Below, piece after piece: positions 33,001 to 39,000 of a stretch of DNA of 58,966 nt. A program made the position numbers. This DNA is from Escherichia phage vB_EcoP_phi367: the sequence record PV189406.1. The stretch is one strand, 5' to 3'. Every line of letters begins with the position of its first letter. Positions within the stretch are counted from its first letter, which is position 1.

Positions 33001-36000
33001 GGAAGGCACCGGGCCTTCCAGAACGCCTGTAGAAAGCGATCTGTTTCAAATTTTTGTCTCCAGATATGAAAACCCCGACGGGATGTCGGGGATGGTAGGG
33101 GAAGTTACAGGCTTAACGAGAAGCCTTTTCGGGAATTTCGATCTGACAATCTTGAAATATCCTGTAGCGTGCGGCGCATTTCTTCCGTCAGATGCTTGAA
33201 GGCGTTAAATTCAGCGACAGCTGCGTCAACGTTATAGCCTTTGCTGTGTAGCTCGTTGAGGATGCGCATAGTTGGGCTTGGCATGTCGAAGAGCACAGAA
33301 ACGTCCAGGTTAAGAGTTTTTCGATCAACATAGCTCATCATGGAGTAGGGGTGGTGCTCTGAAAACCACGATAGAGGGTAGTTGATGTTCATTGGTGCAG
33401 GTAAAAGGCTCTGGCGAAGTTTCTTTTCGCACTCGATGAAGTATCGGCGGATCTGGCGGCCTTTTTCGTTACGCTCAACCATCGCCAGTTCTTTGGCTGT
33501 GTCGAGAGTTAGGTGGTAGTCCTTGCTACGGCGATCACCTCCTCGCCCTTTGGTTTGCCCATTTTGGCAAATCAAAATATAGTCCTGGCTTTCAACGAAT
33601 CCATATTCAGCAATGCGTTCTTTAACCCAGTGCGCGAACATTCTGCCCACACCAAGAAAAGAGTGTAGATCACGAGCGTTAACTAGAAGAATTGTTTCGT
33701 TGTCGATAGTGCCGTTGAATACGGGGATGAGTTGACTGGTCATGATGACCTCCTTTGAAGTTTTAGTTAGCAATCACCAGTTAGTGGCTGGTGATCGGGT
33801 GTCAACTAGAGCCTTCAAAGATGCTCCGGGCATATTCCCCTTGCGGGTATTGTATTACGCCTCTCCACCCGACCTTTGTACGGATGTGACTATGCCAAAT
33901 TGCAGGCATAAAAAAGCCGCAAAGCTATCGGGTGCGGATGACCGCTTTGAAGTTCTAGTGCGGTCAGTATGCGATAGCTCTGGCGGATTTGTCAAATCAT
34001 GTAGGCCTTATCTTGCTGTAAGCCGCGCCATTCGGGCTTTTCCCCAGATTTGGGGGAAACTATCTGCGAAGTATTCACCTTTGACGGCAAGTTGCAGGTT
34101 AGCCACGGTTAACCTCCTGCGGCGGTTCTGGTAGCGGCATCCAGTGTGTTACCTGCTCAACACCATTGCCCGGCTTAATCGTTGCTTCTCCTCGCCGAAA
34201 GGTGCTTCCGGTATAGCGTGCGGAGCATATTAGCGGCTCAACCAGATCACTATCGAAATTCACCGAAATAAGTACGTTCTGATTCTTTTTCGGCATTCGC
34301 TCACTACAGCTTATCCAACCATCCGGAGTTACCGAAACTGGCGACGCGGCATATAGTGGTTTAGGCGATATCTCCGCGCGTTTTGCGTATGCTTCAACTG
34401 TGTCAGGGTTAAACAGGATTATGTTTTCACCGCATTCCCACGCCACCGGCTCTGCTTCCAGCGATGCCAGCGCAATACGTGCAATTTGTCGAATCTCATC
34501 GTTAACGTTGCACATGCGCGGGTCATTGACGTACTGCTCAATGCGTTCTCTGCTAATAGTGGCCATCTCACTCTCCTTTGATGCGAATGCCAGCGACGCG
34601 TAGTGCGTGTTCTAAGTCAATCAGGCAAAGCCAACTGCCATTTTCTTTAGGTATCATGACATGCCGCTTATCAGCATTTATTGGGTGCCCATATCGAAGG
34701 TCGTAGCGAGTCGGTAATTGAACTTCCCTCGCTTCCAGTTCTGCAATGTGTTTGTTTTTAGCTTCTAGTTCATCCAGCAGCGCCAGCACAACCTGCGGTG
34801 TGACTTTCATACGAAATGCCAGCAATTTTTGTGGTGTGGCTACTATTTTTATTGCTTCTGCCGCCTCACGCAGTGCCTGATAGTTAATTTCGGTTGTCAT
34901 GCCACCACCTCTTCGAATTTCAACTCCAATTGATCACCCCAGATTTCACATGATTCGGAACACGAACCAGTATCAAACCGCCTGGCTTGCACCATCGCCT
35001 GATACAAATTACTGTAGTCACTGTCGGCATACATTCTGGCAATCCCGTCAAGCGTCAGGTGGCCACGGTACATAACGTCTTTTCCTGTTCTGCGATGACC
35101 ATCCCTGACGTGTTTGCCTGTAACCAGTTCATTAAAAAACCGCATCAGACCAGGTTCGTCTTTACATGCAAGCCCCAGCTTTTGCGTTGACTTTTTGATG
35201 CAGAAAACACAGTTCCCGAGGTGCTCTGGGATTTGCAAATCAAAAGGTTGTGCTCGCCACCACCGGATAACATCCGACTTATCAAAATGTGACAGTTCGG
35301 CAAGATACCGGACGCCCGGTTTCGGTTTCAGCCTACGGTGTTCGTCCGCACGAATACCCAGCCATGTGATGTAATTCCCTCGTCCGAAATGGTCATCGCA
35401 ATATTTCGTGAAAGGGGTGAGTTTTAGCCTGTCAGTACAGAACGCGCCGCCGATGTATGGCGTGCCGTACTTTTTAACCATATCCATAAACGGTTTAAGC
35501 ACCGGCATTCGCGTCTGAATATCCTTTGGTTCCCATTCCGTATAACTATTTGGCTGCCCAAGCTCTGGATTTATATCGACCTGCAACACGGTTAGTGGAA
35601 TATCCCAGAACTTCACGACTTCCCGAATAAATCGGTATGTCAGCGGGTGTTCACATCCCGTATCCATGAATATGTAATGAACGTTTTCACCTGCCTTTCT
35701 GCGTTGCTCCATAAGGTGAACGAGATACGCCGATGTACGACCGCCTGAAAAACTCACAACATGATGAGCGCTCATTTCTTCGTCTCTTTATGGGGGATTA
35801 AACTGGCGGTAAGCTGGAATTGCCGGATGCTCACCCGTGTCCGGCGCACGTCCTCCACCTCACCCGTGGAGAACTCCTTAACCACAACCCCTAAGGAGGG
35901 TGAAATGGATCAAAATGAAAAAATTAAAATCGCATTTCTTGCCGCTTCAAACGCCACGGCTTTATTTATTAACACTCCGCACTATCGCCAAAAATTAGAA

Positions 36001-39000
36001 GAAAAGCCGGGACTAAAGAAAACAACAATGAACCCAGAGTTCATTTTTAAGAACGAATTTAGTCTTCACATGAAGCGCCTTTCTGAAATTCTAAATGCTC
36101 ATCAAGCCAGTCCAGATCGGGATTGATACGCACCAGTTCGAGTGAATATTCCATGGCATCCCTGGCGTACTCTTTCGGGATGCCATTTTCTTCAAGAATA
36201 TCCTGAACTTTCTGGCGAATAACCGGAACCAGGAAAAGAAGTTTTGTTTCACGATTGCCAAGTAGTTCTTCCAGATCGCGCGTAGCCTCTTCCAGATCGC
36301 GCGTGGCCTCTTCTGGATAGCGATTGCCCGGTATTGATTCCTGCGAATTATTCAGTCTTTCAACAGAATTAATTGATTTATCGTTTTCTGTTATATTGCG
36401 TTTGATGTTTTGTTGACCTTTATTAAGGCAGCAATTTTGAATATGGTCCTTGTGCTTTTCATTATCATAAGCATACAGCCCGACAAAAATATCCCGCAAG
36501 TTTCGGGAGATATTTTCCAGATTCGCCTTTGGTTCTTTTCTTAAATCAACCACCGATAAATGAGCTTTAAGCGTATCCGCAGCTACTTTCTGAATGTCCT
36601 CGGGTAAATCTTTAAATTGCATAATATATCCTCATAGAACGGTGTATTTTCTCGTGAAATGTGAGCGATATGTCGTGACGTCCCTGTCACAGATTTCATC
36701 AGACTGAGAATGTGCCGATGAAGGTTAAGATATCTGCTTCTTCGAAACGCTCTTTCAGCAGGTCACGGAACTCTTTGGCAATTTCTTCTTCCGCAGCTTC
36801 AATGCGCACGATACGTAGTACCAGAACAGGTTGCTCGCTGGTCAGAATACTTAGACGCAGGGTGAACTCACGGTTGCTCAGGCCCTCGAATGGGATGCAT
36901 TCAAAGCGGAAAGTGGCAGGCATGATTTCCTTACTTTTAGCCTCCACTGATTCCATAACTGAGCGGCTACCGCTGAAGTTTTGTTCTTCATATTCAGCAC
37001 TGCGTTTTGCATCGATAGTCAGACGACGGACAGCAGAGATAGCCTGTTTGATATCCAGTACATTACCGTCGCTGTCATAGGCCGTGAGGAAGTCGGCCCA
37101 GTCTTCCAGCCATTCAGCGAGAGATTTCTGGAGTTGTTTTTTGCCGTCCACGTCACGTAATGCGCGATATGGTGATGTGGCTTTCAGTTCCAGCAGTGCC
37201 TTGTTGTCAGCATGTCCTGGTTGATCCAGAGTGCCGATATTGAACACAGTGACCGCTTTCATCGTTTCCGCGTTAATGAAGCAACGAGAGAACCCATCGA
37301 CATAACCTTTGCTGTATTCAACAAAGTCATCAATACTGGTTGTGGTCATGACTCCACGGAAACGAAAGCGTTCTGTCATGAATCGCTCCAGACTTTCAAT
37401 ATTTACATTGTCCGGCAATAACGTAACGGGGCATTCCGTAAGCGGCAAATTTTCACCAGAAAAAGCAGTAGTGGTGAGCTTTACAATTTCTTTAATGGCA
37501 TTGCTATCTAACTGAGACATATATATTTACCTGAGAAATAAATTATTTATGGTTGATATCCCCTGATGTTTTCAGGAGGGAGTGATTATTTAGCGTAAAA
37601 CAGCGTCATGTTGGCCCTGTTTATCGAAAAGCTGTCCCTGGTCTTTCTGGAACAAAGTAAGCTCACCACCTTTATTTACAAACATCGGGGTGTTAGTCGT
37701 GTCTTCTTCTGATTTACTACCACGCATTGTCGGGCGTGTGAATTTTAGTTTATGGGAAACTGATACGCGATTTTCATCAAGTGAAGATAATTCGAATTCA
37801 ACACATACCTTTCCTTTTTTGTTTGTGCTGTTTACGCCAAAGGCAACTTCACTTAATACCGCACCAAGTTTATTAACAAATACCCCGCCGTCGAGGTCGT
37901 TAATGAAAACATTAACATCTGTCTGATGCTGACTCATATTGATATCTCCGTGTAGAGAGTGTATTGAGGCTTCAGTTGTTTACTGAATTTAAAGCCTGGT
38001 TTGTTTGTGAATTAAAAACTATCGCCGCCGTACTGCCAGTAACCCGGGTCGTCCGTGTGATTCGGGTTTGCGTTTTTGCTGCGATTGTCTTTGTCTTTGA
38101 GAGTGGAAGCTATATTTGCTACAGTTTCTGGTTTCTTTCCTTCTGCCTTTTCTTTCAGGGTTTGCCCTGTTTCTGCAATGAATGGAATACGGATTTCCAT
38201 CTGGTAACTGTCTGCGCCAGTCTTTTTGTTTATGGTTAATACTTTCTGTAGCACCAACCCGATTTTCTTTCCGTGGAATTCAGGGGCAACGTATTTACTG
38301 ACGGAAACCATATGTTGCGTTAACTGCCTGATTCCTGCACATCCCATCATTGCATGAACAATATTTGCACCAAACTTGTTTTCCGTTCCGTCATTTTTCT
38401 GAACACAAACACTGAGATACTGAATTTTGCGTCCGTCGTCGGATTCTCCAGAAAACTCAATGAATCGGGCACCTTTTTCTGATTGCTTGAGTTCTGCTTC
38501 AGTAATGGTAATGATATGCGCACCTGTTTCGGTAATGAAACCACCTTGCCCGGCGGTCAGTGCTGCTTCTTCGTTATAAGTAAAAATCACTTCATCCATT
38601 AGTTATTAACCCCCCCATTGTTCTCCAAATACAAAACCAATTTCAGCCAGGGCTTCGTCCATTTTTTCGATGAACTCCGGCACCATCTCATCAAAACTCG
38701 CCATGTACTTTTCATCCCGCTCGACCACGACATAATGCAGTCCTTCACGCTTCATACGCGGGTCATAGTTGGCAAAGTACCAGGCATCTTTTCGCGTCAC
38801 CCACATGCTGTACTGCACCTGGGCCAGGTAAGCCGATTTTATGGCCTCGAAACCACCGAGCCGGAATTTCATGAAATCCCGGGAGGTAAACGGGCATTTC
38901 AGTTCAAGGCCGTTGCCGTCACTGCATAAACCATCGGGAGAGCAGGCTGTACGCATACTTTCGTCGCGATAGATAATCGGGGATTCAGTAACATTCACGC

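Follow-up and report, generated by a model that had tools for sequence, protein, structure and literature searches.

The window analysed here, the 58,966-nucleotide sequence of Escherichia phage vB_EcoP_phi367 (PV189406.1), is a lambdoid prophage of E. coli resembling Shiga toxin (Stx) phages (Oslovirus/PA2-like), and its early-left operon is encoded on the minus strand. Within this operon an open reading frame (ORF) for a 73-aa protein is located on the plus strand, reversed relative to the operon, and overlaps the 3′ end of the minus-strand gene for a 187-aa protein. Our analysis established that this plus-strand ORF is real and conserved, that it belongs to a recurrent cassette whose two genes are either both there or both missing, that the leader in front of it folds, and that its closest relative keeps a convergent partner. 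The reading we tentatively favour, with a probability of roughly 0.45, is that the ORF is a reverse-oriented accessory gene ("moron") at a recurrent polymorphic cassette site, which is probably expressed in the prophage and opposed by early-left transcription.

The plus-strand ORF is a conserved small gene

A first, sequence-only reading of this stretch had described the two genes as a convergent pair with a 68-bp overlap and a strong ribosome binding site; coordinates (plus strand, 35905–36126; minus strand, 36059–36622), strands and lengths all agree with that description. The ORF extends from the ATG at 35905 to the stop codon at 36124–36126. The ATG is preceded by TAAGGAGGGTGAA, with the Shine-Dalgarno (SD) sequence AAGGAGG 5 nt upstream and AGGAG at 35894–35898. 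When the plus-strand ORF is called mechanically, it opens further upstream, with the ATG at 35761.

An exhaustive HMMER search with the protein against 1.84 billion representatives returned only a truncated variant (P0001) and a diverged relative of 68 aa (P0262). A word-indexed protein search and tblastn searches against phages and E. coli genomes yielded no relatives besides identical copies and P0001. P0262 is 46% identical to the 73-aa protein (pairwise E 3e-19, library-wide E 3.9e-9) and begins at the methionine equivalent to the start of the ORF. In a codon alignment of the two genes the proportions of synonymous (pS) and nonsynonymous (pN) differences are 0.71 and 0.32, giving a ratio of nonsynonymous to synonymous substitution rates (dN/dS) of ~0.18; dN/dS is also 0.18 across the 48 codons that are free of any overlapping ORF. 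Identity at codon positions 1, 2 and 3 is 0.68, 0.69 and 0.44, respectively. Together, dN/dS and the codon-position pattern are the signature of a translated gene. Because a diverged homologue with a dN/dS of ~0.18 exists and because the ORF shares its position with at least eight other conserved small ORFs (see below), we conclude from these comparisons that it is a genuine conserved protein-coding gene and not a chance ORF. The sequence-only reading had stated that a plus-strand ORF with neither a translation signal nor conservation would speak against it; an SD sequence is present and a diverged homologue was found, so that this objection falls away.

The ORF type is carried by three of 5426 complete E. 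coli genomes, and in these three it is left unannotated by the Prokaryotic Genome Annotation Pipeline (PGAP). Other annotators call it (e.g., BDI45618.1), and the protein is found on 109 contigs. The copies show no within-type sequence variation and hence give no pN/pS for the type itself.

A single-sequence AlphaFold2 model of the 73-aa protein consists of three helices, with a predicted local distance difference test (pLDDT) score of 75. The grand average of hydropathy (GRAVY) is −0.68, the best 19-residue hydropathy is 1.11 and there is no transmembrane segment. The protein is thus predicted to be soluble and all-helical, and the identity of a membrane type I toxin is excluded by its hydropathy. 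Searches of Pfam (E up to 1), PHROGs, NCBIfam and PADLOC assigned it to no family, and the model has no fold match in the PDB. It has no detectable similarity to the plus-strand ORFs of other cassette types. By eye we had suspected that the ORF and module M of its partner (see below) are kin of the MTQEEK-type pair; this was rejected, since BLASTP gave no alignment.

Decayed or recombinant plus-strand ORFs were also observed (P0097, P0100, P0099 and locus L059). They comprise a 27-aa MDKK-type ORF with a frameshift, a truncated MDQN variant of 43 aa whose last residues are ...EEKPGDAANLLI, and a third form, altered at its C-terminus, that appears to lie opposite another M-module allele. At 36492–36508 the sequence TCCCGCAAGTTTCGGGA can form a terminator-like hairpin, which has a T-run on either strand and is located within the part of the 187-aa gene that codes for its N-terminal module N1 and 366 nt 3′ of the stop codon of the plus-strand ORF; such sites are no more frequent than expected from shuffled sequences.

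A diverged copy of the gene pair

P0262 is encoded in a Rac-like prophage (locus L142), where the small gene again opposes the early-left operon. There it overlaps the 3′ end of the minus-strand partner gene by 29 bp. The partner is a stand-alone 68-aa protein with 47% identity (E 2e-16) to residues 120–179 of the 187-aa protein, which belong to its C-terminal module M; dN/dS between module M and the 68-aa protein is 0.28. The plus-strand ORF and module M have diverged alike (46–47% identity) with retention of the convergent overlap, and an M module is the neighbour of the MDQN-family ORF in each of its three contexts.

The leader is widespread and folds over the ribosome binding site

The leader directly upstream of the ORF was matched at 4541 places, which are distributed over 3191 of the 5426 complete E. 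coli genomes with up to five copies per genome. Among one-genome-per-species representatives it was found in Escherichia and Shigella only, plus one contig of a Collinsella metagenome-assembled genome, which is a suspected contamination. The copy in the Qin prophage of K-12 is located between ydfC and dicF, 30–100 nt downstream of ydfC; a start predicted from this leader would map to about 1,649,131 on the MG1655 minus strand. The K-12 copy falls in a stretch in front of dicF that PMC5069750 describes as a "long untranslated region"; the passages of that paper that were searched mention neither the cassette nor the plus-strand features of the leader.

The plus-strand RNA of 35822–35925 has a folding energy of −33.7 kcal/mol (z −3.67), and none of 200 shuffled sequences was as stable; SD sequence and start region are paired in this fold. 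A consensus fold of 20 distinct variants has 23 pairs, comprising hairpin 1, hairpin 2 and a CUCCU:AGGAG helix closed by CAC:GUG. It pairs in 97.6% of cells on the plus strand versus 89.3% on the minus strand, a comparison that is biased by the derivation of the structure from the plus strand. By reading of the sequence, the UCACCC present in both hairpin loops is complementary to GGGUGA between SD and AUG. Thermodynamics and wobble-type changes, but no compensatory changes, support a structured leader that would occlude the ribosome binding site, as in type I toxin-antitoxin mRNAs. A function of the minus strand, as a put-like or nut-like antitermination RNA or as a terminator, is disfavoured: the complementary strand of 35822–35925 has a z of only −1.61, the wobbles become mismatches and no U-tract follows the hairpins.

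No Rfam match was found in the region 35600–36800 even at E up to 5, except for a spurious MALAT1. The Rfam matches at gathering threshold are all located elsewhere in the window, and the window contains no DicF. The known small RNAs (sRNAs) Pas, AgvB and AsxR were considered as identities of the leader and rejected, since they belong to the late region.

A hexamer TAAACT or TAAGCT is conserved 6–8 nt before hairpin 1 in several unlike upstream contexts, with a weak −35 region. A few loci that carry the leader and no small gene have a different upstream sequence without this −10-like hexamer. The scan of the window detected no terminator or defined RNA 3′ end after the plus-strand ORF and before the neighbouring gene.

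The leader marks a cassette site with interchangeable small genes

With an 18-nt leader core at least 120 loci were fetched from IMG/VR, and the shares of filled and empty loci were determined in a sample of 126. About 60% of the sampled loci are empty like that of K-12 Qin, with the leader abutting the 3′ end of ydfC. In the filled loci (~40%) the leader runs into a conserved ...CCCUCAGGAGGGUGAAAUG, after which comes a small ORF of 63–92 aa, with at least eight different ones among the loci. Each of these converges on a minus-strand ORF, usually starting with MEFKDLP (module N1), with an overlap of 11–41 bp (11–68 bp across all types including that of the window). The ORF and its partner are gained or lost together, and filled and empty loci occur with identical flanks. 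The opposite-strand overlap, which had been taken for something unusual in an otherwise unidirectional operon, is therefore no one-off: the arrangement recurs at this slot with at least eight ORF types, and in the slot of K-12 Rac sieB converges on ydaF.

For the types MLKS, MTQE, MTSK and MNTI, pN/pS is 0.14–0.27 in frame; out of frame the same four types give 0.46–3.8 or no synonymous changes. The other types have too little variation for this calculation. Four of the cassette ORF types are PHROG families of unknown function, and all are annotated as hypothetical. The exact sequences of five types are found on at least ~1000 contigs each, some of them from Salmonella and E. albertii. Six plus-strand ORF types and four partner proteins were compared with Pfam, and no family was found at a meaningful E-value.

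The partner is a mosaic protein

In the 187-aa protein a low-complexity linker with a tandem repeat separates modules N1 and M. PHROG families of unknown function cover residues 1–80 (phrog_1363) and 107–184 (phrog_25397), module M being the first half of phrog_25397. The duplicated EEATRDLE segment noticed in the sequence-only reading is encoded by a 21-bp tandem repeat (36267–36313). One copy of the repeat is missing in a natural allele of 180 aa (P0002), and other alleles are substituted in either copy.

The relatives of the protein (P0002–P0019) are assembled in many combinations from the modules N1, N2 (MNETELKH..., likewise N-terminal), M and C. The identical 73-aa ORF together with the identical M end also occurs in other Rac-like prophages, where the N-terminal module of the partner (P0014) is another one, which marks the 187-aa protein as a mosaic. 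PA2 gp25 (147 aa), which represents the commonest Stx-phage arrangement, and P0003 of locus L003 (260 aa) extend via module C to hairpin 1 and lack the plus-strand ORF. Since these counterparts run through module C without the ORF, the arrangement in the window is, judged by this comparison, a rare recombinant, in which hairpin 2, SD, plus-strand ORF and the end of M were imported into the context of yfdQ and the gene for a PAPS-reductase-like protein.

The AlphaFold2 model of the 187-aa protein is all-helical and poor (pLDDT 48), and it gave no fold match. Pfam, NCBIfam, PADLOC and PHROGs contain no toxin, antitoxin, defence or anti-defence family that matches the protein. The expectation of anti-defence functions among such early-operon genes found no backing in homology, as the pair matches no family of this kind in the four collections and no such fold.

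A different ORF of 96 aa converges on a module-C partner at locus L149 (1826–2116, minus strand) and overlaps ~120 nt of the partner's 3′ end; only its last 34 codons are left in PA2 (L001, 3201–3305). This ORF opposite module C may represent a further type of cassette, or it may be an artefact of the antisense frame. Very many of the N1-family entries P0146–P0260 are "partial" at contig ends, which suggests frequent assembly breaks, perhaps because a single genome has copies of module and leader in several of its prophages.

The cassette occupies the position of sieB

The gene order in K-12 Rac is racR / ydaG ydaF, reversed sieB, kilS kilR. Here sieB is the sole reverse-oriented gene of the early-left operon and shares 4 bp with the 3′ end of ydaF (in locus L144, sieB is located at 2172–2660 on the plus strand and ydaF at 2657–2812 on the minus strand); the annotated sRNA KilS takes the position that DicF has in Qin. 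Qin-type loci have the order dicA / ydfA ydfB ydfC, partner gene, reversed plus-strand ORF, leader, dicF dicB. In L142 the repressor is followed by the M protein, the reversed plus-strand ORF and a kilS-like sequence, with kilR at some distance beyond. Between slot and sRNA, part of the sequence (GCGCTTTCGTGTT...) is conserved across Rac, Qin-type and L142 loci. From these gene orders it follows that the cassette is the positional equivalent of sieB. The correspondence holds in Qin-type and Rac-type loci; in the window the neighbours are instead yfdQ and the PAPS-reductase-like gene.

The cassette genes share slot and reverse orientation with sieB of Rac, lambda and P22. SieB is a membrane protein and has 162 aa in Rac, whereas the cassette proteins have 63–92 aa and are predicted to be soluble; the leader upstream of Rac sieB also differs from the cassette leader. 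sieB is expressed by the prophage and aborts superinfecting relatives while sparing its own phage (PMC10883804).

Most of the filled cassettes lie exactly between ydfC and dicF and thus within the dicBF operon of Qin (ydfABC-dicF-dicB-ydfD). In contrast, leader and cassette of the window lie between yfdQ and the PAPS-reductase-like gene, with no DicF.

Classical morons carry their own promoter and terminator. The cassettes resemble morons in being present or absent between otherwise near-identical, collinear prophages, in their lower GC content (37.8% for the plus-strand ORF) and in an orientation that suggests transcription independent of the operon. They differ in that many cargo genes are found behind one conserved structured leader, and no terminator is evident where the gene meets the adjoining one.

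Type I toxin-antitoxin loci with convergent, 3′-overlapping RNAs are known from Bacillus subtilis prophages (txpA/ratA and bsrG/SR4). Like these, the cassette of the window has a small ORF with an SD-hiding leader, an antisense RNA to its 3′ end if the convergent transcript is made, and a prophage location. However, the 73-aa product is not a short hydrophobic peptide, and the role of antisense partner would fall to an operon mRNA that codes for proteins instead of a dedicated sRNA; Rfam has no antisense sRNA family at this locus, and apart from the transcript of the early-left operon no antisense RNA is predicted. Type II systems differ as well, because the pair is convergent and 3′-overlapping and not co-directional, and neither protein falls into a known toxin or antitoxin family. 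The proposal of a toxin-antitoxin or antisense-regulated cassette is thus partly supported as a hypothesis: adjacency and co-divergence of module M argue for it, while linkage, the occurrence of M without the ORF and the partners of phrog_7249 ORFs (see below) argue against it. Membership in a known toxin-antitoxin class is unsupported by families, folds, hydropathy and orientation.

No description of leader or cassette was found in the searchable literature. A reverse-oriented accessory gene in the early-left operon is already familiar from sieB; a variant in which an SD-occluding leader is shared, the cargo can be swapped and the convergent partner is a mosaic appears not to have been described before.

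Proposed function of the cassette and alternative explanations

From these observations we infer a promoter, expression in the lysogen, antisense control, a relation between the two proteins and a phenotype in the following way. The site would consist of the leader on one side, the mosaic early-left protein on the other side, and interchangeable, mostly unrelated genes for small helical proteins between them. In a lysogen, where the early-left promoter is repressed, a weak promoter immediately before hairpin 1 might drive transcription of the small gene, with translation held down by the SD-sequestering leader. Upon induction or infection, early-left transcription would cross the whole small gene in antisense direction, because it must pass it to reach the downstream genes; this would oppose expression of the small gene and yield the 187-aa protein. 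Module M, whose divergence parallels that of the small protein, may be its binding partner or antagonist. The small protein would most likely benefit the prophage, for example by exclusion of or interference with other phages or by modulation of the host, which are the most plausible roles given the slot.

Several observations weigh against a prophage-expressed moron of this kind. The plus-strand ORF has no homology to SieB or to defence or toxin families (Pfam, E up to 1; HMMER finds only P0001 and P0262). The promoter hexamers are weak, with ~8/12 matches in the common type and ~6/12 in the window (counted by eye), the promoter scan remained below threshold at the −10-like hexamer of the leader, and the plus-strand transcription start is predicted from hexamers only. 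The consensus fold contains no compensatory changes and varies only in a one-sided, wobble-compatible manner. The leader is equally conserved at empty loci and may therefore serve something other than the ORF. Module M mostly occurs without the ORF (eight of ten IMG/VR loci, and also L003 and PA2), and related phrog_7249 ORFs face partner modules that are unlike each other by eye; a relation between the two proteins is therefore not general. The arrangement of the window, present in three of the 5426 genomes, could also be a passenger.

Among the competing explanations the strongest, which we nevertheless regard as unlikely, is that two unrelated accessory genes abut by chance, with overlap and orientation being by-products of recombination at a hypervariable junction and without any interplay of the genes. 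It would fit the extreme mosaicism, in which N1, N2, M and C are freely shuffled, the recombinant nature of the arrangement in the window, which has its breakpoints close to hairpin 1 and inside or past M, the variable length of the overlap (11 to 68 bp), and the frequent absence of the ORF next to M. It does not account for a 3′ overlap that is retained in every filled type and in the 46%-identical homologue pair, nor for the joint presence or absence of the two genes, and the conserved SD-sequestering leader suggests regulated expression.

Next, and likewise unlikely, comes a cognate toxin-antidote (exclusion-escape) pair. Here a lysogen-made inhibitory small protein would be neutralised by module M, and the types would diversify by an arms race; the resident phage, or any phage with a matching module, could grow. 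Such a pair would be expected to co-diverge, as ORF and M did to 46–47% identity with the convergent overlap kept, but linked DNA co-diverges with or without interaction of the products. The M module adjacent to the ORF in all three MDQN-family contexts and the joint gain or loss of both genes agree with an interaction; other plus-strand ORF families, however, face partner modules that are unrelated by eye. The many M modules without the ORF count against a pair, although such "orphan" modules in other phages would fit escape factors. There is no similarity to toxin, antitoxin or immunity families. SieB, which spares its own phage, would be a precedent (PMC10883804).

We consider it rather improbable that the cassettes form a polymorphic exclusion or kin-discrimination system, in which each small helical protein of the lysogen would stop incoming lambdoid phages from growing lytically if their early-left operon lacks the matching C-terminal module, and the resident would silence the gene by antisense early-left transcription. 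If this were true, the sieB slot would hold a family of exclusion-escape specificities across most E. coli lineages. An exclusion-escape model would, if true, explain the extreme mosaicism of this lambdoid region; if it is wrong, the present results amount to a useful annotation correction and not to the discovery of a mechanism.

Still less probable is that RNA is the main product and that the ORFs are secondary cargo. In this case a leader-driven antisense transcript would dampen early-left read-through, by collision or RNase III, into downstream toxic genes (dicF-dicB or kilR) or, in the window, into the PAPS-reductase-like gene. The plus-strand fold is more stable than chance, the leader always lies operon-upstream of dicF-dicB or kilR-type genes, and its conservation is no lower at loci that are empty and lack a following ORF, for example K-12 Qin. 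The ORFs, on the other hand, are clearly under purifying selection at the protein level, the scan detected no terminator or RNA 3′ end, Rfam gave no match and the transcription start is only predicted.

An unexpressed chance ORF in an intergenic or antisense region, for which the omission by PGAP in three complete genomes, the lack of a family match and the absence of within-type variation could be cited, is very improbable and already disfavoured by the 46%-identity homologue, the coding-type codon-position pattern and dN/dS of 0.18, the strong SD at the right spacing, the position shared with eight other conserved ORFs, and the calls by other annotators (BDI45618.1) on 109 contigs.

The leader is present in ~60% of complete E. 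coli genomes, and ~40% of the leader copies in the 126-locus IMG/VR sample carry a small gene. These cassette genes are abundant and under selection and are annotated merely as hypothetical. Since they adjoin the cell-division inhibitors DicF, DicB and KilR and occupy the slot of a known exclusion gene, they are good candidates for a role in conflict between phages or in control of the host. The shared SD-occluding leader provides a handle for the systematic discovery of such genes, including small genes that pipelines miss.

Neighbouring genes and additional features

The features of the cassette and its neighbours are listed below.

Coordinates of cassette, leader and neighbouring genes in the window
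Feature	Position	Strand	Remarks
PAPS-reductase-like protein	34897–35775	−	early-left gene
Leader	35809–35904	+	96 bp directly upstream of plus-strand ORF
−10-like TAAGCT	35811–35816	+	within leader
Hairpin 1	35822–35845	+	9 bp, loop UCACCC
Hairpin 2	35853–35871	+	6 bp, loop CUCACCC
Anti-SD CUCCU	35874–35878	+	pairs with SD AGGAG 35894–35898
73-aa small protein gene (MDQNEK... type)	35905–36126	+	reversed relative to early-left operon
Region common to 3′ ends of convergent ORFs	36059–36126	both	68 bp
187-aa mosaic early-left protein	36059–36622	−	hypothetical protein WP_024245006.1
C-terminal module M (~residues 107–187)	36062–36304	−	co-occurs with MDQN-type plus-strand ORF
21-bp tandem duplication encoding EEATRDL twice	36267–36313	−	Tandem Repeats Finder: period 21, 2.2 copies, 96% match
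N-terminal module N1 (MQFKDLP...) (~residues 1–60)	36443–36622	−	common to most cassette partners
YfdQ homologue (DUF2303), 273 aa	36699–37520	−	function unknown
YfdP homologue, 115 aa	37590–37937	−	phrog_204; function unknown

The early-left genes are arranged in the order Gam, Bet, Exo, DUF669/SSB-like protein (38012–38599), 115-aa, 273-aa and 187-aa proteins, PAPS-reductase-like protein. That the 273-aa protein might be YfdQ/DUF2303-like was borne out: it matches PF10065 (E 5.8e-64, 216 bits versus a cut-off of 26.6) and phrog_210, is 52% identical to K-12 YfdQ over its full length, and matches the PDB entry 9o7m, "YfdQ Protein" (E 6e-45), for which no citation was found among the papers searched. 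The 115-aa protein has 58% identity (E 4e-49) to K-12 YfdP. Its gene adjoins yfdQ on the upstream side, an order identical to that in CPS-53. Both genes are common within lambdoid phages' early-left region, with unknown function (PMC12315714). In the YfdP-YfdQ(-YfdR) cluster of CPS-53 and ST64B-like phages the place of the 187-aa mosaic gene is taken by YfdR. An imperfect 19-bp tandem repeat (two copies, 84%) is located at 37512–37549 and extends from the yfdQ start codon into the AT-rich intergenic region between yfdP and yfdQ.

The sequence-only reading had grouped these genes with the convergent pair into one AT-rich island. YfdP-YfdQ is a separate, already recognised cluster outside the cassette and a widely conserved pair, whereas the arrangement of the 187-aa and 73-aa genes is a rare recombinant; the four genes are not a single block. 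The GC content of the block is mildly low (43.5% versus a window mean of 49.8%, within the lowest 4.3% of windows of equal size), but the term island is overstated, since the early-left arm from 29 to 44 kb has 46% GC overall. Within the block, GC content is 37.8% in the plus-strand ORF and 59.4% in the leader. The proteins are, as had been proposed, uncharacterised accessory genes of the early-left operon.

The PAPS-reductase-like protein has SspD as its top PADLOC model (E 1e-15) and weak matches to DndC and BrxP. These scores reflect PP-loop ATPase kinship of the protein, which is encoded by a common early-left gene that is mis-annotated as "NinC" or "NinB homolog" in older records.

Other features of the window include a full-length Rfam match to sRNA-Xcc1 (RF02221; 33785–33874, minus strand; 65.4 bits versus a gathering score of 53), directly downstream of an antirepressor-like ORF (33105–33773). 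An STnc100 sRNA (52160–52365, plus strand, 158 bits), three tRNA genes (51807–52053, plus strand) and a lambda cIII thermoregulator element (40680–40738, minus strand, 88.5 bits) are the usual late-region and cIII features of Stx-type lambdoid phages. A region at ~9070–10150 on the plus strand with 69% GC contains long collagen-like Gly-X-Y repeats and an internal repeat of ~240 bp, and presumably encodes a tail-fibre protein.

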